From the UHGV virus genome UHGV-0118085: 17,017 nt of DNA; one strand, given 5' to 3'. Source of the stretch: a virus. Position 1 is the first letter of the stretch; each line of letters begins with the position of its first letter. Positions 192 through 17,007 of this stretch are shown here, piece by piece. Under the pieces are notes generated by a model that was given only the letters and a program-made list of their open reading frames with translations, ran no database searches and had not been told where the DNA came from. Both the position numbers and the translations under genes were made by a program.

Positions 192-440
192 TTATATCGC
201 TAAATTTAGTTGATCGCGTCCATAGTGCGAGGCGGGAAAGACGCCTGCAGGAACAAAGTCAGGCGCTAATTTATCGCGCCGCTCACGCTTGGTGACAATT
301 TTTTCAACGCTATTAAGCGTCGTGAATGACAAGCCGCATTCCATGTTCTGGCACTGATGATACTGACGAATCGTGACTTCACTGAGAGGCTTACTGGTGC
401 GGGTGCGGGCCGTAGCGCCACAATGTGGACATTTGAACAT
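192..440 (-). CDS. ogr: Ogr/Delta-type zinc-finger late-gene transcription activator
   Basis: 82-aa ORF with the Cys4 spacing C-x2-C-x22-C-x4-C (CPHC ... CQNMEC) and the YHQCQN motif typical of P2 Ogr. It sits directly downstream of D, as in P2. Confidence 0.85.
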   Translation of the reverse strand: MFKCPHCGATARTRTSKPLSEVTIRQYHQCQNMECGLSFTTLNSVEKIVTKRERRDKLAPDFVPAGVFPASHYGRDQLNLAI

Positions 441-478
441 AATGGTGACTCCCCTGGGGAGTTGAACTCATCGCTATT

Positions 479-1612
479 CTATTCAGTTTCTGCAATCCAG
501 TCAGATATTTTTGCTTCAAAGTTAAGCTGTGTAGTAAATCCATTGCTATCAACGTCATGCTGTACCTTGCTGATTATCCAGTCCTGGGCGTCAATATCTG
601 CCTTAAAACCGGTCACGGTCGAATGCATTTCCGGGTACAACTCCGCACGCCCGCGCGCCAAGGTGATCGAAAACTCCGCCGCGCCGCGCTGTAACTGCTG
701 CCACTTTGCCGCCGCTGCGCGCCTAGCGGCTTCTTCGTTCTGGAAGGTTTTACGCATAATAAAAACGTTACCTTCAGCGCCTTCAATGTAGTCACCTTCC
801 CTGCTGCTGCTCTTATCCTTTTTTTTCGTTGTGGCACGGCGACGAACGCTAACCTTTTTCTTTTTCCCGTAGTTTAGATCAAGCCAGTACGCGCGGACGC
901 CGGTATAAGCGTCACGATCAGCAACCCGGAAGCGGTGCCGGTCTCCACTGCTGCGCGTGATGGCAATCGACGGAATAGCCTTCCCTGATGCAGTGAAACC
1001 ACCACCCGGCACGATAAACAGCAGACTTCCATTTTTTACCGTGGCGATGGCCCCTAACATTTCCGCCATTCTGGTCAGAAATGACATATCGCTTTCCTGA
1101 GTCTGATCGGCGTGATCAATTTCCACATCCATCAACAGATCGCTGATTTGCGGCGTCAGGTCATACCGTTTTGCGATAGCAGACACAATCCGCTCCACAG
1201 TCACATCATGCCAGGAGACTTCACGCTTTACGTTAAACTCTTCTCTGAAATCTGCACTTCTGGCAGTCACGGTGATACGGTCGGGCGGCCCGTCGTGCGC
1301 CACTTCATCAACCGTGTAGATGCCCTTATAAACCAGCGCTTCACCCATCCACCCCAGCCAGAAAGACAACTCAGCGCCACGCGGCGGAAGAGCAACGCTT
1401 CCATCAGTGTCATCCAGCTCTAATGTCAGCTGATCGGCGTCAAAACCCCGGTTGTCCGTCAGGCTGATGGATATCACGCGATCTGATAATTCTGTTAACA
1501 CCTTCCCGCCTTGCCGGACGCTGAATGCTGGTATTTTTAACGCCTCCGTCAGGATGTCATCGACACCGCCAGCCGCGCCCGAAATCATACTGCTGATCAC
1601 TGAAACACTCAT
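479..1612 (-). CDS. D: Phage tail protein D (gpD / late control D family)
   Basis: Long ORF resembling the P2 gpD family and immediately upstream of ogr. The track ORF runs to 1726, but the ATG at 1612..1610 is preceded by GGAGG and gives a P2-D-like length of about 377 aa, so I prefer that start. Confidence 0.8.
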   Translation of the reverse strand: MSVSVISSMISGAAGGVDDILTEALKIPAFSVRQGGKVLTELSDRVISISLTDNRGFDADQLTLELDDTDGSVALPPRGAELSFWLGWMGEALVYKGIYTVDEVAHDGPPDRITVTARSADFREEFNVKREVSWHDVTVERIVSAIAKRYDLTPQISDLLMDVEIDHADQTQESDMSFLTRMAEMLGAIATVKNGSLLFIVPGGGFTASGKAIPSIAITRSSGDRHRFRVADRDAYTGVRAYWLDLNYGKKKKVSVRRRATTKKKDKSSSREGDYIEGAEGNVFIMRKTFQNEEAARRAAAAKWQQLQRGAAEFSITLARGRAELYPEMHSTVTGFKADIDAQDWIISKVQHDVDSNGFTTQLNFEAKISDWIAETE

Positions 1613-1672
1613 ATACCCTCCCGTTTTGCTGAATAATTCCACGCGGGCGCGCGTGGGAGAATTCGTTTTAGT

Positions 1673-1690
1673 TGTCAGAGAGATAGCACA
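1673..1690 (+). promoter_or_regulatory. TGT-N12-ACA dyad, the Ogr-dependent P2 late-promoter activator-site pattern, upstream of FI
   Basis: TGT at 1673..1675, a 12-nt spacer cagagagatagc, then ACA at 1688..1690. The dyad centre is about 70 to 85 bp upstream of the FI start, the right region for an activator site near -55. Confidence 0.5.
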
Positions 1691-1753
1691 ACCAGAAAGG
1701 CGTGAAGCCGTTACGTCAATCAGCAATCATGGTGGCGAACTCAACAAAACGTA

Positions 1754-2956
1754 ATGGTGACAAACATGTCTGAGACACGTTTTCACGGTGCTCGCACCAA
1801 AGAAGAAACCGACATCACGAGGGTAATTAACGACATTGACTCCAGCGTCATTGGCGTGATTGTCATCGCTGATGACGCAGACGAAGACGCTTTCCCACTT
1901 AACATCCCAACGCTTATCACGCGGCCTCAGTCGATGCTCGGCAAGGCAGGGAAAACAGGGACGTTGTACAAAACACTGAAAGCTATTTCAGACCAGGCAA
2001 GCGCGAAAATCATTGTTGTTCGTGTTGCCACGGCTAAACCGCCGGAGGAAGGGAAAACGGCGGAAACACAGTCGCAGTTGATTATTGGTGGCTCTGATGC
2101 TGACGGTAACTACACCGGCATGTATGCGCTACTGACCGCCGAACAAAAAACGGGATATCGCCCGCGCGTCCTGGCGGTGCCGGAATACGATACCGAAGAA
2201 GTAACATCACAGCTTTGCGTGATCGCCAAACAGCTTCGCGCCTTTGTTTATGCTGGCTGTAACGGCTGCAACACACTGGCAGAGGCCCGGCAATATCGTG
2301 AAACCTTCGCATCACGTGAACTCATGCTGATCTGGCCTAACTACATTGCCTATAACCAGGTGTCCGGGGCAAATGAAGAGTTTCCCGCCCCAGCCTATGC
2401 GGTAGGGCTGCGCGCGTTTATTGACAACCAATACGGCTGGCATCGTTCTCTGTCTAACATCGCCGTCAGTAACGTGCTTGGCATGTCGAAGGACGTTTTC
2501 TGGGCGCTCCAGGCTGAAGACAGCGACGCCCAGACGCTGAACAACGATGAAATCACCACCATCATCAAGCGTAACGGCTTCCGCTTCTGGGGCAACCGCA
2601 CCACTGACACCAATGAATTTACTTTTGAGGTGTACACCCGTACGGCGCAAATCCTGGCGGACACCATCGCAGAGGCACAGTTTGAAACCGTTGACGGGCC
2701 ACTTACCCCAACCAACGTGAAAGACGTGGTGAGTGCAATTAACAAGAAACTCAGCGCACTTGTGACCGCTGGCAAGCTGCTTGGCGCGGAGGCGTGGTTT
2801 GACATTGTGGACAACCCGACCGCAAACCTGATTCAGGGAAAAGTGGCGATCCGTTACAAGTATACGCCAGTACCGCCGATGGAAGATTTAACGCTGATCC
2901 AGACGTTCACCGATGAATATTTTGAAGGCGCGTTTTCGTCTCTGGGGAGTAACTAA
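1754..2956 (+). CDS. FI: Contractile tail sheath protein (P2 FI family)
   Basis: 400-aa ORF with tail-sheath hallmarks (DADEDAFPLN near the N-terminus, GFRFWGNRT, LRAF, C-terminal YTPVPP). Its stop is immediately followed by the start of the tube-like ORF, as for FI-FII in P2. The true start may be the ATG at 1766 (MSETRF...). Confidence 0.85.
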   Translation: MVTNMSETRFHGARTKEETDITRVINDIDSSVIGVIVIADDADEDAFPLNIPTLITRPQSMLGKAGKTGTLYKTLKAISDQASAKIIVVRVATAKPPEEGKTAETQSQLIIGGSDADGNYTGMYALLTAEQKTGYRPRVLAVPEYDTEEVTSQLCVIAKQLRAFVYAGCNGCNTLAEARQYRETFASRELMLIWPNYIAYNQVSGANEEFPAPAYAVGLRAFIDNQYGWHRSLSNIAVSNVLGMSKDVFWALQAEDSDAQTLNNDEITTIIKRNGFRFWGNRTTDTNEFTFEVYTRTAQILADTIAEAQFETVDGPLTPTNVKDVVSAINKKLSALVTAGKLLGAEAWFDIVDNPTANLIQGKVAIRYKYTPVPPMEDLTLIQTFTDEYFEGAFSSLGSN

Positions 2957-4039
2957 ATGGCGATTCCAGCAAAATTGCGGCTGTTCACCTGCTTCGTGAA
3001 CAGCGTAAACAATATCGGCAAAGTGACATCTGTGACGCTGCCAAAACTGACCCGGAAAACGGAAGACTACCAGGGCGGCGGCATGATTGGTTCCGTTGCC
3101 GTCGATCTCGGACTGGATATCTGGCGATTCTGGGAACCGATCAAAGCCTTCTTTGCGGGCTTCTTTGCCGGTGTGATGCAGGCTCTTACACCGTTCCGGG
3201 ATGCCTTTGCCGGGCTGGCCCCCGTCTTTGATGTGATCTCGAATGCCGTTTCTGAGTTATGGCAGTGGTTCAGCAACCTGCTTTCACCAATGACGACCAG
3301 CAAAGAGATGCTTGATAAATGCGCAAGCGCTGGGGAGACATTCGGCAAAGTGTTTGGCCTGGCAATTCAGGGGTTAATGTTGCCTCTGACCGGGCTAGCC
3401 AAAATGGTTGGATGGATACTTGAAAAGCTGGGACTGATTCCATCCGGGATTGAAACAGCAAAAGCAAAAGCTGAGAAGGTACAGAAGGAACTAACACCGG
3501 CAGGATTGACTATGCTGCAGGACAAAGTTGGCGCGCTCACTGGTGATGTAAAAGCAGTAACCGCACCACCTATCGCACCGCCATCACCGGTGATTGCCGC
3601 AGATACAGGAACACAACGACGCTTACAGAAAATTGCCGACAACACCGGCGGGATGCTGGATGAAACCAAAAAACGGATCGGCCCTGGCGATATAGTGTTT
3701 AAAAACCTGCCCCGCGCATTAGCCGTCCACGGCACATGGCAGGAAGCACAATCAACCCAAGGCGCTAACCTGACCCAACTGAGCGGGCGACCGGTTATCG
3801 CAGCGGCATCAGCCCCGATTAAACCAGCGGCTGAAATACAGGCTATTGGCGGGCAATCCAGGAAACAAATCAGCAGATCGGCGCAAAACACCACGCCTGA
3901 TGAAATGCATATTCACATTCATATGCACGGCAATTTCAGCAACGACGCCCGCGACATTGCGCGCATGACCGCCGACGCAGTACAGGCAGAATTTAATAAG
4001 CGCTTCCGCTCACGTAGCAGCTTCAGTGACAATGAATAG
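2957..4039 (+). CDS. Chimeric ORF: tail-tube (FII-like) N-terminus fused in frame to a tape-measure (gpT-like) C-terminal portion; probably a deletion remnant
   Basis: The first ~54 residues (MAIPAKLRLF...VTLPKLTRK...VDLGLD) resemble the tail-tube N-terminus. The remainder is an Ala/Gly-rich, partly hydrophobic sequence typical of a tape-measure C-terminus. 360 aa is far too long for a tube protein (about 170 aa) and far too short for a tape measure (about 800 aa). Confidence 0.6.
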   Translation: MAIPAKLRLFTCFVNSVNNIGKVTSVTLPKLTRKTEDYQGGGMIGSVAVDLGLDIWRFWEPIKAFFAGFFAGVMQALTPFRDAFAGLAPVFDVISNAVSELWQWFSNLLSPMTTSKEMLDKCASAGETFGKVFGLAIQGLMLPLTGLAKMVGWILEKLGLIPSGIETAKAKAEKVQKELTPAGLTMLQDKVGALTGDVKAVTAPPIAPPSPVIAADTGTQRRLQKIADNTGGMLDETKKRIGPGDIVFKNLPRALAVHGTWQEAQSTQGANLTQLSGRPVIAAASAPIKPAAEIQAIGGQSRKQISRSAQNTTPDEMHIHIHMHGNFSNDARDIARMTADAVQAEFNKRFRSRSSFSDNE

Positions 4040-4051
4040 GAGAGCAAAACA

Positions 4052-5749
4052 ATGATGATGGTTTACGGAATGTTCGTCTTTGAGTTAAAAACCGTTCCCC
4101 ACCAACAGTTGCAGCAATCAAAGACCTGGAGGCATGTGAAGAACGAACGCATAAACCGATCGGCAAAATGGCAATACATTGGCGCGGGTGACGATCAAAT
4201 CACCCTATGCCAACTCACCATGAAGCCGACAAAGACGGGCGGCGATCTGAAGGAAATTGACGCGCTCACGCGCCAGGTGAAGAAACTGGCAGAAGGACAA
4301 CCGGCGCAGCCATTCAAGAAAGCGCGCGCGAGCAAAAAGAAAAACCACTTCACCGAAGCGCAGATCGCCGCGCTGCGGGAAAAAATTCAGGACTCCTTGG
4401 CCTGGCATCAGCAAGGATGGTTTGAACAGCGCCAGCAGCGCAACCGCATGATCCTGAAAAGTCGCCAGATTGGCGCTACCTGGTACTTTGCCCGTGAAGC
4501 GCTTTTACAGGCGCTGCGGGATGACGTTAAGCACGGGTATCAGCGCAACCAGATTTTTCTGTCAGCGTCACGTCGCCAGGCGCACCAGTTCCGGGGCTTC
4601 ATCCAGAAGGTTGCAGAAGAAGTCGACGTAGAGCTAAAAGGCGGTGACAAAATTTTGTTATCTAACGGGGCCGAATTGCATTTTCTCGGCACGTCTGCTG
4701 CTACCGCGCAGAGCTACACCGGCAACCTGTTTTTCGACGAATTTTTCTGGGTAGGTAACTTTGCCAACCTCCGCAAGGTGGCTGGCGCAATGGCAACCCT
4801 GAAAGGACTGACGCGCACTTATTTTTCAACGCCATCGAGCGAAAGCCATGAAGCCTACCCCTTCTGGACGGGTAAGCGCTGGAATGAGAAGCGGGCAAAA
4901 TCCAGCCGAGTAGAGTTCGACACAAGCTGGAAGACGCTCAACAGCGGCCTGTTGTGCCCGGATAAAACCTGGCGGCAGATTGTCACCCTGAAGGACGTGA
5001 TCGACCACGGCTGGGAGTTCACCGACCTGGAAGAAATCCAGGACGAAAATACCCCGGACGAATACACCAACCTGTACATGTGTGAGTTCGTCAAAGAAGG
5101 TGAATCCGTTTTCTCACTTAATCAGCTACTGACGTGCGGCGCGGACGGCTACGACGACTGGCAGGACTGGAAACCCTACGCCCCCCGCCCGCTTGGCGAT
5201 CGTGAAGTCTGGATAGGCTACGACGCCAACGGCGGCAGTGGCAACGGTGACAGCGGCGCTGTTTCCGTGGTTACCCCTCCCCTGGTCAGTGGCGGCAAGT
5301 TCCGCACGATAGAGACGCGCCAGCTACGCGGGATGGAGTTTGAAGAACAGGCCAAAGTGATCGAAGACCTGACCATTAAATACAACGTCCGGCACATCGC
5401 AATTGACGGTACCGGCATTGGTGAAGCGGTCTGGCAACTGGTCAAGAAATTCTTCCCGGCGGCGGTCTGTTTCATCATGTCGCTGTCATCAAAGCGCACT
5501 CTGGTACTCAAAATGCAGCAGGTGATCCGCGCGGGCCGCTGGGAGTATGACCGTAGTGAACAGGCGTTAGTGTCAGCATTCAACGCCGTCAGGAAAATCA
5601 CCACCGCCGGTGGACAAATTACCTATGACACCGATCGCGCGCGCGGCGTCAGTCATGGCGACTTAGCCTGGGCAAATATGCTGGCAATCATCAACGAGCC
5701 ACTTGGACGCGAGAACGGCAGCGGCGGCGGTTCCGTAAGAGAGTTTTAA
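4052..5749 (+). CDS. Chimeric ORF: gpU-like tail-protein N-terminus (about 65 aa) fused in frame to a nearly complete large terminase (gpP-like, ATPase plus nuclease)
   Basis: The N-terminus MMMVYGMFVFELKTVPHQQLQ...WRH...ITL...TGG matches the gpU family pattern. The rest carries terminase large-subunit features (KSRQIGATWYFAREAL, QIFLSAS, GNLFFDEFFWV, YFSTPSS...YPFWTG, C-terminal IAIDGTGIG). An RBS (GGAG) precedes the ATG, and the stop overlaps the Q start (TAATG). Confidence 0.65.
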   Translation: MMMVYGMFVFELKTVPHQQLQQSKTWRHVKNERINRSAKWQYIGAGDDQITLCQLTMKPTKTGGDLKEIDALTRQVKKLAEGQPAQPFKKARASKKKNHFTEAQIAALREKIQDSLAWHQQGWFEQRQQRNRMILKSRQIGATWYFAREALLQALRDDVKHGYQRNQIFLSASRRQAHQFRGFIQKVAEEVDVELKGGDKILLSNGAELHFLGTSAATAQSYTGNLFFDEFFWVGNFANLRKVAGAMATLKGLTRTYFSTPSSESHEAYPFWTGKRWNEKRAKSSRVEFDTSWKTLNSGLLCPDKTWRQIVTLKDVIDHGWEFTDLEEIQDENTPDEYTNLYMCEFVKEGESVFSLNQLLTCGADGYDDWQDWKPYAPRPLGDREVWIGYDANGGSGNGDSGAVSVVTPPLVSGGKFRTIETRQLRGMEFEEQAKVIEDLTIKYNVRHIAIDGTGIGEAVWQLVKKFFPAAVCFIMSLSSKRTLVLKMQQVIRAGRWEYDRSEQALVSAFNAVRKITTAGGQITYDTDRARGVSHGDLAWANMLAIINEPLGRENGSGGGSVREF

Positions 5750-6810
5750 TGAACACAACAACACACGAAAGCGGCCTGACTATGCTTACTGACGGTACAC
5801 AGCAACATGATATTGGTGAAGCACTGAAGCGCGATCCAGCCCTTAGCGCTTTCACCTTTGATGGGCCATACCAGGTCGCTGACGCTTACGACCTGCTCGA
5901 CAATATGTATTGCGCCGATAACGGCAGATATTACGAAACACCGGTGGACTGGTACGGGCTTGCGCGCTCATTCGGCAAGGCGTCCTGGCACCAGTCAGCG
6001 CTGTACTTCAAGCGCAACGCGCTGGCGGGTTGCTTCATCCCACACCCGCTACTGTCTCGCCAGACGTTCTCCGCCCTGGCGCTTGACTGGTTTGTGTTTG
6101 GCAACTTCTACCTGGAAGAACGAAATAACCGACTAGGCGGGCTGCTACCGCTCCGCCATTCCCCGGCGAAATACACCCGGCGTGGCATTGACCTGGATAC
6201 ATACTGGTTTATCAGGCAGTGGAAAGACGAATCAGCTTTTAAAACCGGCTCTGTCTGCCATGTGTTGAACCCTGACATTCATCAGGAGATCTACGGGATG
6301 CCGGAGTACATGGGCGCGCTATTGTCAGCCAGCCTGTCACACTCGGCGGACATGTTCCGCAAGATGTATTACGAAAACGGATCTCATGCCGGATGCATTC
6401 TGTATATCGGCACATCACAGGTGGACGACGCTGGCGTAAAAGTCATACAGCAAACACTGGCGGGAGCCAGGAACAAAGGGGCATTTAAGAACGTAGTGAT
6501 CCACGCGCCAGGCGGCGGTAAAGACGGGGTACAACTGATGCCCTTCAGCCAGATATCAGCAAAGGATGAGTTTTTAAATATTAAATCAGCGACACGCGAT
6601 GACATTCTGGCGGCTCACCGCGTACCGCCGCAACTGATGGGGGCCATGCCGGACGGCAACGGCTCATTCGGTGATGTGGAGAAGGCCGCGCGCGTGTTTG
6701 CCATCAACGAACTAATGCCAGCAATGGAAGCGCTGAAGCACGTCAACGACTGGCTGGGGGAAGAAGTGATCCGCTTTAAACCTTACGCCCTGCTGGAAAC
6801 CATGAAATAA
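5749..6810 (+). CDS. Q: Phage portal protein (P2 gpQ family)
   Basis: 353-aa ORF of P2 Q size, translationally coupled to the terminase ORF, and followed by a GC-rich cos-like spacer as in P2. Confidence 0.85.
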   Translation: MNTTTHESGLTMLTDGTQQHDIGEALKRDPALSAFTFDGPYQVADAYDLLDNMYCADNGRYYETPVDWYGLARSFGKASWHQSALYFKRNALAGCFIPHPLLSRQTFSALALDWFVFGNFYLEERNNRLGGLLPLRHSPAKYTRRGIDLDTYWFIRQWKDESAFKTGSVCHVLNPDIHQEIYGMPEYMGALLSASLSHSADMFRKMYYENGSHAGCILYIGTSQVDDAGVKVIQQTLAGARNKGAFKNVVIHAPGGGKDGVQLMPFSQISAKDEFLNIKSATRDDILAAHRVPPQLMGAMPDGNGSFGDVEKAARVFAINELMPAMEALKHVNDWLGEEVIRFKPYALLETMK

Positions 6811-7030: not shown

Positions 7031-7152
7031 GCGTGTTTTCGTGCATTGGCAGAACCACATCCAGCAACCATAGACCCTGCCATTATCGTCTTAAAACTCG
7101 ACTGATTTAGTTGTGCATTTTTGTGCACTTTCTTGCATGTCATTACACGTAT

Positions 7153-9924
7153 TTAATCATCTAGCAACGGATCTTGTGCCTTACTGGAATTAACTTGCTC
7201 CAAATGCTTAATACAATCTTCACTTGAAATAAAATAGACCTTAGGTTTTTTCCTTAGCTCATATGTCAAAAATACTGTCACTTCCATTTTTACATACGTT
7301 TTCAGATTAGTTTCATTTATATCTAATCCTCTTGAAGTCAACAAACTATCAGATGGAGAAGTGAAAGATGCTTTTAATATATCGTCTCCCTCAAGAGAAA
7401 AACAACAAACATCATCAAGATGAATATAATAAAAACCATCCTTATTAAATTTTACATCATTTTGTACTCTATATCTCATTCCTCTGTAGAATCTGACGTT
7501 ATGATCAAAATCATTCTCTATTGCGCTTATAGTTATAAACTTCAAACCTTCAGGGAGTTGGTTAAGATTCTTAATAATAACAACATCCATATCATGAAGA
7601 TCACTAATCAAATGAGAAGTGATGAGTTTGAAAACATTTGCCGCATATAAAGATGGAGATTGGGAATATATTTCTCCATTAATGGGCTTAATAATCTGTC
7701 GCTTCGTAATTAGATATTCAAAAACAAACTTGTCACTAATATTTTCACAACTACACTCTAAAGTAGCAAACTCACGAAATGTTTTTATGAAATCATTTTT
7801 TAATCCATCTTCATATAGCTTCATGAGTTCTTCATCATAAGGAGTATTGATCACATCATTGACTTGAATATCAAGAATCTTAGAGTTTATTTCTTCAAAT
7901 CCAGAAAGTAGATTATGCTTACGCTCATCAAAACTATTAAGCTCATCATTATGAGCTTCTAATTCGAGTAAATCCATAACTTCTCTAAAAAAATCTGATT
8001 GATATATAGACATGACATCATCTATAAAATGAGATGAAAGATTATTTACCTTTACAAGGTTCTCTAAATCATCAATATATATTAGACTTAAACCATTATT
8101 GTACGAACGACCTTTGAATAAAATCAATGCTAAAGCAAAAGCCATATAATGTTGTGATCTTATAGAAATAGCACCTGAGCCAGTTGCATCCCTTATTTCA
8201 AACTCATCTATATCATCTAAAAAAACAGATTTTAACGAAAAAAGAATATCATAAACTTCTGATATGAAGTAAATCTCCGTTAAGTAATGAGGATTCAACC
8301 ATTGGCTCAGCAAGTTTGCCAGATCTAATATTTCCTCATTCTTATTTTTTAGTTCACATAATCGAATGCCATCATTTTTTCCTAGTAGGTGCTCCAACCG
8401 CATTCCAATACAAGATATCACTATTTTATTCGCATCAATCAGCAAGGATTGTCTAGTATTCAATTCAGATGATGAAATGCCAATATAAATGTTATTATTC
8501 CCAGTAAGAAATGTAGTGTTTATTTTAAAAGCATCATAATGTCTATTGACAAGGTTTTTAATACTCGACTTAAGATAAATCTCAAGAAACTTATCACTTT
8601 CAGAATACATAACTCTTTCTTCTGTGAAACTCCTAGACTCAATCAAAAAACCATAATATGAAGATGGATCATAAATTATTCTCGGAAGAGAAAGCATAGA
8701 ACTAAAGACGATTAGAGCTTTTTCAATATCGGTATATAGAAGAAGCCATAGCAACTTATTATAAAACGCGAATAGTATTGTTTGTGGTGTATTTTTTGAG
8801 GATGGGGATTCATATATGAATCGTTCCAAACTTAAAAACACTCCTGCACTTTGAGATTTTGAAATTATTAAATATATTACTTCCACACAAAAATCAAGTT
8901 GACTACTTAAACTCCCCTGCAAGGTGTTTAATGTATTCCTTACAACCATCAACTCTATTTCATCATAAAAATAGAAATTTTCGCTTTCATTAAGATAATT
9001 GAATGATTTACTAATGAGCGTTTTAATTTTATTAAGAGACTCATGATTTTGATTCAAATTAATGCCTTCATCAGAAAAAATAATGGCATCTCTATCAATC
9101 ATAGGCTTGTGAAATGTAGGTGAGATATATAATACAACTTTTGAAGTGCCGAAAATTTTTGTTAGTTCAGCATTCAATTTATTTAGATTATTCTTATTAA
9201 GGCCAACTATTACTTTCTTATCCGTAGAATATGTATTTTTAATTTTTACTCCATTTAGAGGCATGAACTCCATTTCATATTTAATAACTGAATTCTGTTG
9301 GTTTTTTATAAAATTACGAAATTCAGCAAGTAGATGCTTGCTATTATTATTACTATCTAAAACAAATGAACTAACTTCCGTTACTTTATTCAATAAAATT
9401 GCATCAATCAACTCTTTTTTCTCTGTTATATAATATAAACTCCTGAACATGGATATGTATCGGAATATAAAAAAAACAGAGCATGATACTGACAAGGCAT
9501 ATTGAATAACCCCCCCACCGATTACCAAGAAAAAGATTCCCACAAATAATCCGCAAATAGCATTAAGGCTGAATGAATAAAATTTATATTCTCTCAATAC
9601 CAATTGCCTTGTTACATTAACAAAATACTTATTTGATGCCTCTGTAACCTGTTGAACAAACATTCCCATAAATGCAATTGATAATGCAGCGATTGTTCCG
9701 TGGATTGATAATATAGTTCCCCAAGAGCTAGGAATCCAATTTAACTCTGCTTTATTAACGTATAACGGAGAAATAAAGAGCCAGCGATAGTCAGAATCTC
9801 CTCCTGCCCCTACAAAAAATAAAACCGAACCTAAAAGCAAAATTAAACCCATCTTAATAAAAGACTCAATTGCTTTTTTACCTGTGAATTCAGCCACCTG
9901 CTTTGATATTTTACCACTATCCAT
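7153..9924 (-). CDS. Large AT-rich cargo protein of unknown function with about four N-terminal transmembrane helices; candidate anti-phage defence or exclusion protein
   Basis: Uninterrupted 923-codon ORF. Sampled 60-nt lines inside it give 19/60 and 14/60 G+C, against 37/60 in a sampled line of gene A. Hydrophobic segments fall at residues about 25-41, 66-90 and 118-165 (nt about 9430..9852). No Walker A, HUH, DPPY or other motif recognised in the soluble part. It occupies the P2 tin/old position between A and cos/Q. Confidence 0.8.
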   Translation of the reverse strand: MDSGKISKQVAEFTGKKAIESFIKMGLILLLGSVLFFVGAGGDSDYRWLFISPLYVNKAELNWIPSSWGTILSIHGTIAALSIAFMGMFVQQVTEASNKYFVNVTRQLVLREYKFYSFSLNAICGLFVGIFFLVIGGGVIQYALSVSCSVFFIFRYISMFRSLYYITEKKELIDAILLNKVTEVSSFVLDSNNNSKHLLAEFRNFIKNQQNSVIKYEMEFMPLNGVKIKNTYSTDKKVIVGLNKNNLNKLNAELTKIFGTSKVVLYISPTFHKPMIDRDAIIFSDEGINLNQNHESLNKIKTLISKSFNYLNESENFYFYDEIELMVVRNTLNTLQGSLSSQLDFCVEVIYLIISKSQSAGVFLSLERFIYESPSSKNTPQTILFAFYNKLLWLLLYTDIEKALIVFSSMLSLPRIIYDPSSYYGFLIESRSFTEERVMYSESDKFLEIYLKSSIKNLVNRHYDAFKINTTFLTGNNNIYIGISSSELNTRQSLLIDANKIVISCIGMRLEHLLGKNDGIRLCELKNKNEEILDLANLLSQWLNPHYLTEIYFISEVYDILFSLKSVFLDDIDEFEIRDATGSGAISIRSQHYMAFALALILFKGRSYNNGLSLIYIDDLENLVKVNNLSSHFIDDVMSIYQSDFFREVMDLLELEAHNDELNSFDERKHNLLSGFEEINSKILDIQVNDVINTPYDEELMKLYEDGLKNDFIKTFREFATLECSCENISDKFVFEYLITKRQIIKPINGEIYSQSPSLYAANVFKLITSHLISDLHDMDVVIIKNLNQLPEGLKFITISAIENDFDHNVRFYRGMRYRVQNDVKFNKDGFYYIHLDDVCCFSLEGDDILKASFTSPSDSLLTSRGLDINETNLKTYVKMEVTVFLTYELRKKPKVYFISSEDCIKHLEQVNSSKAQDPLLDD

Positions 9925-10104
9925 AAGAGCACCACTTTAATATGTAAATTACAAATCAAGAGTTATAATTAACACACACAACGAAACCGTCTCTATTCTC
10001 ATAAAATACGCCAACGCATATTAGATATAGACCTCTAAGTTTCGGTTCTGATTGAATTGATAAAAAAATCATTTCACTATATGCTTTGAGGGAAGTAAAA
10101 GTAT

Positions 10105-12594
10105 TCATCTTTCAGGGGCAATCCTTTTCAACATTCTAGTGTAATATCCAATTGGATCATGCCTAATGTTACCACAGTCAATATTATGTCTTATTTGCAT
10201 ACGTTGCCACAACGCCCTGATTTTAGAGTCCATGCTGGAGTCTGATCGACGTCGCACTTCTCCATTGTTGTTGGCATAAACAACACTTTCATCAATACGC
10301 AAATGTTCGCCGCGTAACAACAACTTTATTTGGCCTGTACTCAGCTTCATGCCGATAGATCTGGCATAGTCATCCATTACAGCTATGCGTGCTTCAGGTA
10401 TTGGCACAGTGACATGGTCAGCAGGCATACATTTTTCCTGTTGGCGCAACTCATGAGCTACCTTCAGATAGATCTCTGCTCTAGCCTGCTCAATTTCACC
10501 ACAATCAAATGCCGTAATAGCATTAGCAAGCGCTTCAAATTCATCAGCAGGTGATTTTTGCCGTTTCGATTTGTAGTTTCTTAAACCTTCATTAAGACGC
10601 ATTTTCTGTTCGCGGGTCATTTGACCAATTTCATACTGTTCGGGTTCGTCCGGTTGTGAATTTTCACATACTGATTTTGTGTGTTTTTTGTACTCAGTAC
10701 AGTTATTGACACGAGTCCAAGAGGGCGCGGGCGCGCCCTTAAGGTCAAAACCTCGACCAGCGTCGTCGTCTGCTTTTGGCTTCATTTTGACAATACGATA
10801 AGAATGGAGACGGGTTTCAACCGGAGGAATAGTCGATGCTGGCATGACTACGCCTTTAATGACTCTCTGAAACTCGCCGTAACTGCTCGGTTCATCCCGG
10901 TACTGATACCATGCGCGCAACACAAGCCTATTCCGTGCCACGAACGGGCCACCCTGCAAGGTAATGTAGTCCTGCCAGTTCCCCGCATGTGCGGCGCGAT
11001 GTAACTCACCGAAAACCGGACTGATACGATCTGCCATTTCCTGATTCTTCAGGCGGCGCAACTCGCGCCAGACAGACACCGGCGCACCACCCAAAAACTG
11101 AAACTGACGAATGCCCCAGCATGAAGCCCAGGCGGTAGCGTGTTTTGCTGTTTCCTTCAGTGGACGTCCGCTTTCGTCGTCGCTTTCACCATCCAGCGCG
11201 TAGCCATCAATATTTTTAGATATGTACTTAACAACATAGCCAGTAGCACTCCCCAAAGCCGGATCTATTGGCTTAAGCTCAAAGCGCGGTTGCTTGCCAG
11301 TCTTGCCGGTTAGCTCGTCTGCATCCTCACGTGTGGCGTAGTCTTCCATCACTTCCAACAACTCGCCGGTATGTTCCGGGGCAGTGAACAGAAGGCCATG
11401 CCAATGCGGAGTAGCATCATGGTGAGATTCAGCAACGCGAAGGCCAAAAACAGGAATCTCACGGCGCGCAAGCTCCGCGCGGATCAGCTGCCAGACGTGA
11501 TTAAGGTAGTTCTGTGTTTTGCGTGGGCTTGCTCCGTTCCATTTATGATTACGATGCCCGAATACTGTAAAAGCATGATATTTAGACGGTGCGGTCAACG
11601 TGAAGAAACTACCGGCAAAACCGCTTTCTGTTGCCACTTTCTCAAAGCCACCAATGCGCGTCATCAACTCAACGCGGCGCTTTTCAGGGTTAGAAATACT
11701 TTTATCAATCTGCTCTATCAGCGAAATGCGCTCGCCAGTTACCTGATCTTCAAGTTCAAGACGGCTCATAATTTCGCGACTACGCTTACGGCGGGAATCC
11801 CACTGTGTAACGTGGTGTTTGCTGCAATACGGTGAAACATCGCGGCGCACATCACCATAAGCAATGTGCAAATGCTCACGCCAGCGGCGGGCGTACTTGC
11901 GCAGAAGGCGTGACCAAAAGCGATCGTGCGTGGTTTTTTGTATTGCCGCCGCCGCTTCATCAAGCGCCATCCGGCGCTTCTTCGCCCAAGGTGCCACCAA
12001 CCTGAAATACGCAATTAGTCTAGAGCCTTCACGCACCATGCGTTTGCCGTACTCAGCATCACTAAACATGCTCGCGCCTTCACTCACTTCAGCCAAAACG
12101 GCATTGGCATAAATGGCAATGTCCTGTGCCAACAAATCAATATCTTCATCGGTACTATCAGCCAGATTATTGAAGCGGTGCGCTAGCTCACGCAGATTTT
12201 CAAACGTGTGAAATAGTGGGTTTAGTTCAGAGAAAATGATCCAATCATTGTCTTCTGGTACCGCGTATTGATTCGTGACGTTACGGACGTGTGGAAGCTC
12301 GCGCTTAACGATATCGCGTAGCTTCAGTTTTGCGATATGACGTCCTTTATCCTCGTGAACGGTATTTATGTAAAAAGCAATGCGACGGCGAATGAAAGAA
12401 GGTAACGGCTTAAGGGTATCTTCTACCCATGCGAAAAACTCCTGCTCTTGACCCAATTCATATAGGTCAACAGCGGGAGTCTTATCGACGGAAATGGCCT
12501 GTTTGGGCTCATTCCAGGCGTAAGCATACCGGGCTGGCTCAACCGAGCCTCCCGGCATGGAGGTCATGCTATGGGTGCGGCGAACTGAAGTCAT
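10105..12594 (-). CDS. A: Rolling-circle replication initiator endonuclease (P2 gpA family)
   Basis: HUH motif PHWHGLLF (nt 11398..11406) and the twin-tyrosine motif YVVKYISKN (nt 11224..11238) with the two Tyr three residues apart, as in P2 A and phiX174 A. The track start at 12597 is a TTG; the ATG at 12594 is preceded by AAGG, so I prefer it. Confidence 0.9.
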   Translation of the reverse strand: MTSVRRTHSMTSMPGGSVEPARYAYAWNEPKQAISVDKTPAVDLYELGQEQEFFAWVEDTLKPLPSFIRRRIAFYINTVHEDKGRHIAKLKLRDIVKRELPHVRNVTNQYAVPEDNDWIIFSELNPLFHTFENLRELAHRFNNLADSTDEDIDLLAQDIAIYANAVLAEVSEGASMFSDAEYGKRMVREGSRLIAYFRLVAPWAKKRRMALDEAAAAIQKTTHDRFWSRLLRKYARRWREHLHIAYGDVRRDVSPYCSKHHVTQWDSRRKRSREIMSRLELEDQVTGERISLIEQIDKSISNPEKRRVELMTRIGGFEKVATESGFAGSFFTLTAPSKYHAFTVFGHRNHKWNGASPRKTQNYLNHVWQLIRAELARREIPVFGLRVAESHHDATPHWHGLLFTAPEHTGELLEVMEDYATREDADELTGKTGKQPRFELKPIDPALGSATGYVVKYISKNIDGYALDGESDDESGRPLKETAKHATAWASCWGIRQFQFLGGAPVSVWRELRRLKNQEMADRISPVFGELHRAAHAGNWQDYITLQGGPFVARNRLVLRAWYQYRDEPSSYGEFQRVIKGVVMPASTIPPVETRLHSYRIVKMKPKADDDAGRGFDLKGAPAPSWTRVNNCTEYKKHTKSVCENSQPDEPEQYEIGQMTREQKMRLNEGLRNYKSKRQKSPADEFEALANAITAFDCGEIEQARAEIYLKVAHELRQQEKCMPADHVTVPIPEARIAVMDDYARSIGMKLSTGQIKLLLRGEHLRIDESVVYANNNGEVRRRSDSSMDSKIRALWQRMQIRHNIDCGNIRHDPIGYYTRMLKRIAPER

Positions 12595-12603
12595 CAATCC
12601 GCC

Positions 12604-12777
12604 TTAGATGGAAACAGTGTCGCCGGGCTGTATTGCTCTGGCGTCACGTTCTGAATAGGTGATCAGATCTGTATTGCTGTAACCCCCCTCACCCAGAACC
12701 TCAACACGAGTTATCCAGTAATTACGGCGCGGGAGCACATCCAGCACCTTTGTCACAACGACCTCAACGGGATTCAT
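12604..12777 (-). CDS. Hypothetical small protein (57 aa), translationally coupled to the methyltransferase
   Basis: Hand-translated as MNPVEVVVTKVLDVLPRRNYWITRVEVLGEGGYSNTDLITYSERDARAIQPGDTVSI. Its ATG (12777..12775) overlaps the methyltransferase stop codon (12779..12777) by one nucleotide (TGATG), with AGGAGG upstream. It is below the ORF-track length cutoff. Confidence 0.45.
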   Translation of the reverse strand: MNPVEVVVTKVLDVLPRRNYWITRVEVLGEGGYSNTDLITYSERDARAIQPGDTVSI

Positions 12778-13760
12778 CAGAACACCTCCTGATCATCAAA
12801 AGCACCAGAGGCAACCATTTCTGAATAGGTCGCATCAGCCATCACAGCACCGCAATCAGGACAACCGCCGCCAGTACGCCCACAACAACCACAAACGCGT
12901 AGAAAGCCGATCACCTCGCCAGCCAAGTTGCGAGATTTGGCCCCTACAGATCGGCGGATTTCGAATGAATTAAGGGTGAACGGGTAGTAAATTTTGCGGG
13001 TTTCCGGGGTATCGCTACCGGAAAAAACAGACAGGCATCCTTCGTTGTTATGAGCGGTAATCAATGACTCAACCAGGTCACGGTGATCATCGACAGTGAA
13101 GGGTTTACCGTACGCGGTAAAATCAGCCGTTTTACTCGCTGGCAGGTAAGGCGGATCACAGTAAATTACTGTGCGCTCAAATATGCGACTAGCAACAGGG
13201 ATGGTGTAACGGAAATCAGCGCAAAGAAACTGAGCACCTTTCTCATATGCTCGTTTTGCAAAGTGCTGGATCTCTGCAACAGGGAAAATTGGCTTGCGGC
13301 GACGACCAAATGGAACGTTAAATTCATTCTTCCCATTCACTCGGTATAAACCGTTATAGCAATGACGGTTTAGATAAAGGAATAATGCTGCAAACTTTAC
13401 AAGTTCACTCTGATAATAAACCTTTCCATCAGAAGTTTTTTTATTATGCTGGGGGAAATCACGATTAAAATCATTAAATTCATTGCGGCATTTATAATAT
13501 GCCTCTTCATTATTACCGCCATCAAATAGAGTAGCAGCGACATCTAGCAACGATTTAGTATTGTTCTTCAATATTGAATAGAAGTTCATAAGCGCTGCGT
13601 TGCTATCACACAGAATATAGGTTTTATAGTCAGTGTTCAGAAAGACGCTACCACTACCTACAAAAGGCTCAACGAGACATTCACCCTTTGGCAAAGCCTC
13701 CAGTACATGAGGCATCGCGCGAGACTTGCCGCCCGCCCAGATCAGAGGGGAGTTAACCAT
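12777..13760 (-). CDS. Dam-type N6-adenine DNA methyltransferase with a Cys-rich C-terminal tail
   Basis: N-terminal SPLIWAGGK...EPFVGSGSV (AdoMet-binding) and catalytic DPPY (nt 13146..13157). I start it at the ATG at 13760 (MVNSP...), preceded by AAGGAG, rather than the track start at 13832. The C-terminus carries CGCCGRTGGGCPDCG (nt about 12852..12893). Confidence 0.85.
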   Translation of the reverse strand: MVNSPLIWAGGKSRAMPHVLEALPKGECLVEPFVGSGSVFLNTDYKTYILCDSNAALMNFYSILKNNTKSLLDVAATLFDGGNNEEAYYKCRNEFNDFNRDFPQHNKKTSDGKVYYQSELVKFAALFLYLNRHCYNGLYRVNGKNEFNVPFGRRRKPIFPVAEIQHFAKRAYEKGAQFLCADFRYTIPVASRIFERTVIYCDPPYLPASKTADFTAYGKPFTVDDHRDLVESLITAHNNEGCLSVFSGSDTPETRKIYYPFTLNSFEIRRSVGAKSRNLAGEVIGFLRVCGCCGRTGGGCPDCGAVMADATYSEMVASGAFDDQEVF

Positions 13761-13920
13761 TTTTTTGCTCCTTGATTTCTGCGGCCTTTTCTCTGTTGTA
13801 GATCCAGTCTTCCAGGCTGCGATAAATTTCATTGGTGGACAGCTTTTCTTTTTTCAGTAAGGTTAATTTGATACGTAACAACCCAAGCAGGTGCGCGCGT
13901 TCATTTATTTGAATTGTCAT
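13753..13920 (-). CDS. Hypothetical small protein (55 aa) overlapping the methyltransferase start
   Basis: Hand-translated as MTIQINERAHLLGLLRIKLTLLKKEKLSTNEIYRSLEDWIYNREKAAEIKEQKNG. GGAGG lies upstream of its ATG, and its 3' end overlaps the methyltransferase ATG by 8 nt. Confidence 0.45.
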   Translation of the reverse strand: MTIQINERAHLLGLLRIKLTLLKKEKLSTNEIYRSLEDWIYNREKAAEIKEQKNG

Positions 13921-14992: not shown

Positions 14993-15265
14993 TTAAAGGC
15001 CCATCCAGAGCAACCAGGCATCACGCTGTTCAACCGGGCGGTTATAGAACGCCTCACGCACCCCGCGATTGAACTCAGGAACAAAGACCAGCTTTTCTCC
15101 CGCGCGCGCTTTTGGCTTCGACGGATCACGAAACTCAATAACCGGCAGCTTATTTTTTTCAATCATGGTTTGTACGGCTGTGCGTGGTTTACCTAGCAAT
15201 TCCGCGAACTTATCAGGATGTACCGCATCAAGCGGGTACTGAATAACGTAATCAGCAGCTTCCAT
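14993..15265 (-). CDS. cox: Cox-like excisionase / early repressor of the lysogenic promoter
   Basis: 90-aa ORF divergent from the C repressor gene, resembling P2 Cox (FAELLGKPRTAVQTMIEKNKLPVIEF...). It is the first gene of the minus-strand early operon leading to A. Confidence 0.75.
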   Translation of the reverse strand: MEAADYVIQYPLDAVHPDKFAELLGKPRTAVQTMIEKNKLPVIEFRDPSKPKARAGEKLVFVPEFNRGVREAFYNRPVEQRDAWLLWMGL

Positions 15266-15426
15266 AAACTATCTCCATTCTCATTTGGTTACATGCTAAC
15301 CTTGTAAGATCCAGCGGCTTTAAAACGGCTCAGGATGGTTCCTGAGCGGCTGGACTCACGCCCAAAAAGGTTCTGAGTCAATGACCTTTTCGGGTGAGTA
15401 TAGTCATTAAGTCAGGACCAAATCAA
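15266..15426. promoter_or_regulatory. Divergent early/lysogenic promoter-operator region between cox and C
   Basis: 161-bp intergenic region between divergent cox and C. It contains a perfect palindrome gctcagga-tggt-tcctgagc (15328..15347), near-direct repeats ggttcctgag / ggttctgag (15338..15347 and 15369..15377), and a -10-like TATAGT (15399..15404) upstream of C. Confidence 0.55.
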
Positions 15427-15720
15427 ATGAATCTTGCTCAAAAATTGCGAGCGATCAGGAAGGCAGAAGGGCTAACACAGGCTAAATTCTGTGAAATCAG
15501 CGGGATAGCGTTAGGAACGCTGAAGAATTACGAAGGAGGGCATCAAGAGCCAGGTATACAAGTGATCATGCAGGTAACTAACACGGCGCATTTTGAAAAA
15601 TACACCCTGTGGTTAATGACCGATAAGACAGCACCAGAAGCCGGGCAGATTTCCCCGGCCGTCGCACACTCTGGGCAAGACGAAACAACCTCGTCACCAT
15701 CAGGCCGCAAAACTGGCTAA
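15427..15720 (+). CDS. C: Immunity repressor C (P2 C family, helix-turn-helix)
   Basis: The C-terminal half (FEKYTLWLMTDKTAPEAGQISPAVAHSGQDETTSSPSGRKTG) closely resembles P2 C. I start it at the ATG at 15427 (MNLAQKL...), preceded by AGGA, giving 97 aa; the track ORF begins at a GTG at 15394. Confidence 0.85.
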   Translation: MNLAQKLRAIRKAEGLTQAKFCEISGIALGTLKNYEGGHQEPGIQVIMQVTNTAHFEKYTLWLMTDKTAPEAGQISPAVAHSGQDETTSSPSGRKTG

Positions 15721-15862: not shown

Positions 15863-16843
15863 ATGACTATCAAAAGACTCGATGATGGGCGTTATGAAGT
15901 GGATATCAGACCGCGCGGGCGTGAAGGACGTCGCATCCGCCGAAAATTTGAGAGAAAGGCTGAAGCTATTGCCTTTGAGCGCTACACATTAGCGAACGCT
16001 AACCAGAAGGAATGGGCGGGCCAGAGAACAGATCGCAGATCTCTATCTGAATTACTGGATGCCTGGTGGAAGTATCACGGTCAAAACCATGAACACGGTG
16101 AGAAGGAATTTAACCACCTCACGAAGACGATCGGCGGCATCGGTGACATACCCGTTAGCCGCGTGAGCAAACGGCTCCTGATGGACTACCGTTCTATGCG
16201 ACTTCGTGACGGTATCAAGGCATCAACAATTAACCGTGATATGTACCGTTTTTCAGGCATGTTCACCAAGTTGATTCAGTTGGAAGAGTTTTCCGGCACA
16301 CATCCAGTGCATGGACTACCGCCACTGGCAGAAGAAAACCCAGAAATGACATTTCTGGCAAAGGAAGAGATCAGCAGCTTACTAAATGCCTTAACCGGCG
16401 ATGCAAGATTGATTGCCCTTCTGGGCGTCAGTACCGGTGCGCGATGGTCTGAGTTGGCAACGTTAAAGCCTTCTCAGATCGTCAATTGCCGCGTGACTTT
16501 CCTGAAGACCAAAAACGGGAAAAAGCGCACTGTTCCAATTTCTGCTGAACTAGAAAAACTGATCAAGAGGGAGGCAAGCGCGAAACTGTTTAAAGTGGAC
16601 TATGAAAAATTTTGTCTGATCCTGAAGGCGGTAAAACCAGATATACCCCCGAACCAGGCAACACATATTCTGCGTCATACCTTCGCAAGTCATTTTATGA
16701 TGAATGGGGGTAACATTATCGCGCTACAGCAGATATTAGGACATGCCAGCATCCAGCAAACGATGGTTTACGCGCATCTGTCGCCAGACTATCTGCAAAA
16801 TGCTGTCTCACTAAATCCCCTTGCCGGTGGCGTATCGCTTTAA
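15863..16843 (+). CDS. int: Tyrosine integrase (P2 Int family)
   Basis: 326-aa ORF with the catalytic signature HILRHTFASH ... MVYAHL (H-x-x-R and the nucleophilic Tyr). It lies downstream of C on the same strand and next to the right att repeat, as in P2. Confidence 0.9.
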   Translation: MTIKRLDDGRYEVDIRPRGREGRRIRRKFERKAEAIAFERYTLANANQKEWAGQRTDRRSLSELLDAWWKYHGQNHEHGEKEFNHLTKTIGGIGDIPVSRVSKRLLMDYRSMRLRDGIKASTINRDMYRFSGMFTKLIQLEEFSGTHPVHGLPPLAEENPEMTFLAKEEISSLLNALTGDARLIALLGVSTGARWSELATLKPSQIVNCRVTFLKTKNGKKRTVPISAELEKLIKREASAKLFKVDYEKFCLILKAVKPDIPPNQATHILRHTFASHFMMNGGNIIALQQILGHASIQQTMVYAHLSPDYLQNAVSLNPLAGGVSL

Positions 16844-16962: not shown

Positions 16963-17007
16963 GATAAAAAAAACCCCCACATCATGTGGGGGAAGACAGG
17001 GATGGTG
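16963..17007. repeat. Attachment-site direct repeat, int-proximal copy
   Basis: Matches 45..89 at 44 of 45 positions and includes the same A-run plus ccccaca/tgtgggg hairpin. Confidence 0.8.

Follow-up and report, generated by a model that had tools for sequence, protein, structure and literature searches.

The gap between gene A and an AT-rich cargo gene in a defective P2-like prophage is the ordinary leader of an imported module

How is an accessory gene transcribed once it has been swapped in behind the replication gene of a P2-like prophage? Accessory and defence genes are known to accumulate in the gpA-gpQ hotspot of these phages, and the mode of cargo expression decides whether a lysogen is protected. 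The locus considered here lies in a virus genome of 17,017 nt (UHGV-0118085), which was analysed at its full length and is called the window below. In it, a 923-codon cargo gene follows replication gene A on the same strand across a short AT-rich gap. A preliminary description of the sequence had treated the cargo as a defence gene that must be expressed in the lysogen, and had predicted a promoter of its own inside the gap, pointing to the AT-richness and to the P2 genes old and tin. That description placed the gap exactly: 180 nt separate the TGA of gene A (10107-10105) from the cargo ATG at 9924. This stretch is also non-coding in the Citrobacter orthologue.

The window is a complete P2-like element of ~16.9 kb, flanked by direct repeats. 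An exact 33-nt repeat, CCCCACATCATGTGGGGGAAGACAGGGATGGTG, is present at 57-89 and 16975-17007 (45 nt at ~98%) and is probably the attachment-site core; because it stands at both ends, the window holds the whole element. Related elements adjoin cpxP. The small early ORFs lie on the minus strand among the early genes, and the region from 192 to 6810 encodes Ogr, D, the sheath, a fusion of tube residues 1-54 to the C-terminal part of the tape measure, a fusion of gpU residues 1-75 to terminase, and the portal. Capsid, lysis, baseplate and fibre genes are absent from the element, and its sheath-to-U block is inverted relative to the P2 gene order. The element is defective and rearranged, and another locus, L016, has the same arrangement in a further decayed state. 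The cargo sits between gene A and the portal gene, which is the gpA-gpQ hotspot placement (Table 1). Approximately 65 nt upstream of the sheath gene, at 1673-1690, we noticed a TGT-N12-ACA dyad, TGTCAGAGAGATAGCACA, as is characteristic of Ogr-dependent late promoters in P2.

Table 1. Features of the window, listed from its right end to its left
Feature	Coordinates	Strand	Remarks
int	15863-16843	+	
C-like HTH repressor gene	15394-15720	+	
Pe-like early promoter, TTGATT-18-TATACT	15426-15397	-	12.3 bits (PWM); placed like P2 Pe
cox	14993-15265	-	
Dam-type methylase gene	12777-13832	-	
Replication gene A (Phage_GPA)	10105-12597	-	E 5e-95; last recognisable early-operon gene
Swapped module: last ~110 A codons, gap and cargo	7138-10433	-	blastn breaks at 7137 and 10434 against ES1
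50-codon ORF, ATG overlapping the A stop (ATGA)	9956-10108	-	probably spurious
Untranslated gap between gene A and cargo gene	9925-10104	-	180 nt
Distal gap, no detectable constraint	9967-10104	-	43% mismatches, JC 0.64, indels (against Citrobacter L007)
Proximal conserved block, -64 to -13 from the ATG	9937-9988	-	local alignment z 2.8, p 0.02 against shuffles
TATAAC, best -10 candidate	9962-9967	-	no usable -35; hexamer alone 2.4 bits
Shine-Dalgarno-like GTGGTG	9930-9935	-	5 nt before ATG 9924; read from sequence
Cargo gene	7153-9924	-	923-aa protein; N-terminal multi-helix membrane domain and large helical cytoplasmic part
Portal gene	5749-6810	+	converging on the cargo gene

The gap is AT-rich relative to the phage backbone. 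Its GC content is 0.306, below that of all 441 windows of 180 nt taken from the backbone (mean 0.509, sd 0.053). To this extent the preliminary description was right, but the sequence around the gap is just as AT-rich: the cargo CDS has a GC content of 0.304, 59% of the 180-nt windows within the cargo equal or exceed the gap in AT-richness, and the final ~100 nt of gene A are likewise low (0.35). Low GC is a trait of the whole imported module (~7138-10433; ~3.3 kb, GC 0.317 versus 0.509 in the backbone) and not of the gap. Because the composition of the gap is that of the cargo, AT-richness gives no pointer to a promoter, and this part of the case for one falls away. AT-richness beside an AT-rich import is uninformative about promoters.

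The limits of the import were drawn against an intact relative in E. coli ES1 (NZ_CM184353), which occupies the same chromosomal site and is homologous to the window up to 7137 and from 10434. Between these break points, the C-terminus of A in ES1 is a different one, the gap after it measures 211 nt, and the cargo consists of a Dam methylase gene and a small hypothetical ORF; all of this lies on the A strand. A further relative, AMSCJX04, has three genes at the hotspot on the opposite strand, so that hotspot content differs among otherwise homologous phages. The gpA-gpQ hotspot of P2-like phages is already well described; it also holds non-defence cargo, and small intergenic leftovers of recombination are common in it (PMC9122126; PMC13586616). 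Sequenced phages have no match to the A protein of the window beyond residue ~676-681. Cargo homologues in Citrobacter, Enterobacter and Lelliottia are preceded by the A tail seen in the window (WQRM..RHNID....RHDP.GYY..ML). At one locus (L029, 3282-4000), a frameshifted copy of the tail is followed by a gap of ~160 nt and the cargo, all behind a different, intact A; tail, gap and gene therefore move as one unit. Our conclusion is that a foreign AT-rich gene entered this defective P2-like prophage by a swap at a known variable site, and that the gap is simply its usual upstream leader.

Does this leader contain a promoter? A consensus scan, which recovered the Pe-like early promoter as a positive control, returned no minus-strand promoter-like site in 9500-10500. 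We also scored the region with a PWM of published sigma-70 hexamer frequencies. The best sense-strand pair in the gap, TTTACT-17-TGAAAT, reaches 6.5 bits, which is below 98% of dinucleotide shuffles of the gap (shuffle mean 10.1) and below 97% of the 180-nt windows of the cargo CDS. Over the 775 nt upstream of the cargo (10700-9925), the best site is TTGACT-19-TCCAAT (10181-10151) at 8.8 bits, and the Pe-like promoter, 5.5 kb distant, is the sole sense-strand site of at least 11.5 bits upstream of the cargo. The control promoters set the scale for these scores. P2 Pe (TTGACA-17-TAGTAT) scores 15.0 bits and phage 186 p95 (TTCACA-18-TACTGT) 10.0 bits, the top site of its own gap, but the mapped P2 old promoter (TGCACC-17-TAAAAT / TTGAAT-17-TAAAAA) scores only ~8 bits. 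The PWM is thus poorly sensitive to weak promoters, and those of accessory genes can slip past it. On these scans the gap has no canonical sigma-70 pair, and the preliminary description had picked out no convincing one either, but an absent PWM signal is not proof that there is no promoter.

Other regulatory signals were sought as well. No extended -10 (TGn) is present: AAT precedes TATAAC, and none of the ten best -10-like hexamers of the gap has an upstream TGn. A search of 9901-10260 for a LexA box (CTGT-N8-ACAG, at most two mismatches) found none, the three Ogr-type TGT-N12-ACA dyads of the window all lie outside the gap, and the gap shares only three chance 8-mers with the Pe/Pc control region. 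On the other strand, the gap contains an antisense promoter-like site, TTGATA-17-TATGCT (10057-10085, plus strand, 9 of 12 matches), aimed into the 3' end of A. The sense strand of the cargo CDS also has three sigma-70-like sites of at least 12 bits (9411-9383, 8552-8522 and 8127-8098, minus strand), which score like Pe. These look-alikes inside a coding sequence illustrate what AT-rich imported DNA produces by chance.

Lambdoid morons and the AT-rich islands of enterobacteria, which are bound by H-NS and contain many weak promoters, are one point of comparison. Like them, the module is an insert of foreign composition (GC 0.32 versus 0.51) with an accessory gene; in contrast to morons, however, the flanking promoter and the clear terminator that define them were not found here. 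For cargo co-oriented with A, the correct precedent is the p95-tum module of phage 186, not P2 old and tin. In 186 (U32222), as in the window, a non-essential module (p95-tum-orf97) comes straight after A on the same strand, with a gap between. The 253-nt gap of 186 contains the module's own promoter, the LexA-controlled p95, with its -35 at 29020 and its -10 at 29044 (PMC7708051). The module genes of 186 are unrelated to the cargo, and the two gaps differ: p95 is recognisable, with a LexA box overlapping it, whereas the gap of the window has no comparable hexamer pair or LexA box. The old-tin cargo of P2 (AF063097) is also found in the gpA-gpQ hotspot and is expressed in the lysogen from its own promoter. 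However, the old and tin genes run opposite to A, from transcription starts at 33424/33426 beside cos, so their promoter is at the far end of the hotspot and not in the gap after A. The analogy drawn in the preliminary description does not hold on this point.

That description had also placed the cargo on the same strand as the cox-to-A operon, and this was confirmed, with the Pe-like promoter upstream of the operon. Could transcripts of A simply continue into the cargo? No intrinsic terminator was found after A on the minus strand in 9500-10500, and a 201-nt fold of the gap is not stabler than its shuffles (z -0.8). C is less frequent than G in the gap RNA (24 and 31), and C-poor RNA is a poor substrate for Rho. 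Since there is no terminator-like hairpin, no stable fold and little C, A transcripts seem to run unobstructed into the cargo. The same fold result, and an Rfam search of the gap with no match at E <= 1, led us to reject a structured RNA, riboswitch or sRNA. Only ~57 nt separate A from the cargo homologue in Enterobacter soli (L023), which fits co-transcription. Downstream of the cargo, two minus-strand hairpins (6940-6925 and 6835-6817) are followed by poor T runs.

In its simplest form, this would mean that the cargo lacks an individual promoter and closes the Pe operon as its final cistron; a repressed lysogen would not express it, and the protein would appear only upon induction or through leaky repression by C. 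The shared strand, the missing terminator, the failure to find a canonical promoter within 775 nt upstream, a score under that of nearly all shuffles of the gap, and the very short interval in L023 all favour read-through as the only source. We regard it as possible but doubtful, because several observations in relatives do not fit. The cargo of L029 lies ~820 nt beyond the intact A, behind an untranslated pseudogene of about that length. The gap in Kosakonia (L014) has a good promoter, TTGACA-16-TAGGAT, at 13.4 bits (p 0.03), the only clearly good gap promoter in the family. In addition, the conserved block before the cargo start extends further upstream than a ribosome site requires, and intact homologues survive where Pe has been lost.

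These Pe-less remnants occur in three genera. In Citrobacter, the equivalent of window positions 16293-12555 is gone, taking with it the 5' end of int, C, Pe, cox and the early genes, and A is truncated and frameshifted; nevertheless, the 923-codon frame of the cargo is intact. The Lelliottia and Enterobacter remnants, the latter in several species, retain only pieces of A and carry full-length cargo homologues. Intact cargo in such remnants weakly suggests some expression that does not depend on Pe. The cargo has a dN/dS of 0.21 and a dS of 0.50 against Citrobacter, with a dN/dS of 0.13 over the first 160 codons, but the dead A fragment in Citrobacter gives 0.27, near the value for the cargo, and we therefore rejected dN/dS as proof of expression in the remnants. 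Because the dead fragment behaves so similarly, and because the cargo gene is broken into 165- and 765-aa parts in some E. coli isolates, retention in remnants is weak evidence. What survives of the earlier claim of autonomous expression is that Pe-independent expression is plausible, given these homologues; no promoter was located in the gap.

Conservation of the gap separates it into two parts. The only close orthologue is the Citrobacter cronae remnant (L007; 81% protein identity), and the whole gap diverges from it at JC 0.52. The distal 138 nt, which contain indels, evolve at or above the synonymous rate (JC 0.64 versus a cargo dS of 0.50), and the proximal 9966-9925 have a JC of only 0.23, so that conservation is limited to the last ~40-60 nt. 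Together with the lack of a canonical pair, the distal divergence leaves a promoter in the spacer unsupported. The conserved block contains ATTATAA, invariant between E. coli and Citrobacter and spanning the TATAAC at 9967-9962, and two further elements, CATATTAAA and GGTGCTCTTATG. TATAAC carries a C at the critical last position in E. coli, where Citrobacter L007 and Enterobacter L015 have TATAAT at the matching place. Combined with any -35, it totals at most -1 bit in the PWM. Beyond this pair of genomes, no upstream block common to distant homologues or clades was significant against shuffles, and an apparent cross-clade motif, TTGAGAG..TATAAT (L007, L015 and L029), was dropped on the same grounds. 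Footprinting within E. coli was also set aside, as the gap is identical in all copies, with one SNP in 8.8 kb.

Taken together, these observations lead us to a tentative account, in which our confidence falls somewhat short of even: the gap would be the upstream untranslated region of a horizontally acquired module, and the cargo would be transcribed by read-through from A plus, at most, weak initiation lacking a -35. The A tail, the gap and the 923-aa gene would have arrived together in the gpA-gpQ hotspot of the defective prophage, with the distal ~140 nt as unconstrained junction DNA and the proximal ~40-60 nt as a translation start region (GTGGTG, 5 nt, ATG 9924). Judged from sequence, the most likely routes of transcription are two. 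Polymerases would pass unimpeded from A into the cargo whenever Pe fires, as expected from the absence of a terminator and the C-poor RNA; and initiation, at best weak, may occur near the conserved TATAAC, which would leave a leader of ~30 nt.

An alternative is that the promoter belongs to the module but lies further upstream, in the 3' coding end of A (10105-10433), so that the gap is a mere long leader. The A tail is always found with the cargo in the E. coli, Citrobacter, Enterobacter and Lelliottia clade, it accompanies the cargo even as a pseudogene (L009, L013, L015 and L029), and in the Lelliottia remnant just ~130 nt of it remain between a host-gene terminator and a two-gene cassette. 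Two candidate promoters can be named there, ATGATC-16-TAGAAT (10160-10133, 8.7 bits), whose -10 reads TAAAAT in Citrobacter, and the TTGACT-19-TCCAAT pair that is the best of the 775 nt. Both are weak and lie within protein-coding sequence, where coding constraint already accounts for the conservation. Moreover, the spacer of a TTGACA/TATGAT pair in Lelliottia is 14 nt, and the Kosakonia homologues have a different A tail. We consider a promoter in the A tail unlikely. Cloning of the cargo 'with native promoter' should take in the A tail (to ~10433), beyond the 180-nt gap.

The gap might also be coding. Its 50-codon ORF overlaps the stop of A as ATGA, the form taken by A and orf91 in P2, and translation coupled to A in this way would deliver ribosomes as close as 31 nt to the start of the cargo. 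Only 1.8% of shuffles hold a frame open for 50 codons, and some gene callers annotate the ORF. However, in the Citrobacter orthologue this frame runs into a stop after 7 codons, PHROGs and PADLOC contain no homologue, and the underlying DNA has diverged as fast as neutral sequence; on these three grounds we judge that the ORF is probably spurious, and a real, coupled gene seems highly improbable. The resemblance to P2 ends with the overlap: the sequence is unrelated to orf91, and homology of the ORF or the gap to orf91 was rejected because no similarity was found.

The preferred account assigns the proximal gap to translation of the cargo, and the start itself can be placed. According to the preliminary description, no strong Shine-Dalgarno sequence precedes the ATG, which is only partly right: GTGGTG stands 5 nt before it, and Citrobacter L007 and Lelliottia L009 have the GGTG core at an equal distance from the start. 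Met25 had been raised as an alternative start. No in-frame start exists upstream of 9924, and 11 of 14 aligned family members start at the equivalent methionine and share positions over the first ~24 residues, in the pattern M-D/N-x-N-..-L-K-H-V-K-K-S-T-x-K-E. This segment lies before Met25, and Met25 itself is not present in every family member. The alignment thus identifies Met1, and not Met25, as the start codon.

A more speculative reading concerns the purpose of this arrangement. The cargo may lack a lysogenic promoter deliberately, being placed last in the early replication operon so as to act only on derepression or replication, and the linked A tail could then be more than a recombination scar. 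We think this improbable. If true, it would make the cargo an example of hotspot cargo that works during induction, and not as immunity expressed by the lysogen.

The cargo protein is a more interesting object than the gap. That it is a defence gene was an assumption only: it has no match in PADLOC, Pfam or NCBIfam, a fold search gave no informative match, and the hotspot also has non-defence cargo (PMC9122126). The only matches are to PHROG families of unknown function. Conservation is highest in its N-terminal membrane domain, where the motifs HGTIAAL and FMGMFVQQ are invariant. The exact protein is present in one E. coli assembly and in gut metagenome contigs, and DNA and protein searches with gap and cargo found nothing in sequenced phages and complete E. 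coli genomes. The cargo is a rare, uncharacterised membrane protein, and a few P2-like elements of enterobacteria are its only known locations to date. When its model was compared with viral models by Foldseek, many HK97-type major capsid proteins were returned (E 0.03-0.3, target TM at most 0.36), none of them significant.

Neighbouring ORFs in related loci were also considered. In Enterobacter, upstream ORFs of '124 aa', '108 aa' and '88 aa' were rejected as partner genes when they proved to be fragments of A. In Lelliottia amnigena (L009:5443-5973), a 176-aa ORF with a strong AGGAG site follows the A-tail remnant and ends 27 nt before the cargo homologue; it has no family matches, and no equivalent ORF was found at the other homologue loci examined. 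The idea that the gap is a decayed copy of this partner gene was discarded, as tblastn against the gap of the window gave only E > 1. Finally, the 211-nt gap that follows A in ES1 (L025:5401-5611, GC 0.51) contains three tandem repeats of ~35 nt (..GCCAGTTGTGTCTGTGTGGTACCGAAATGGCAAT..).
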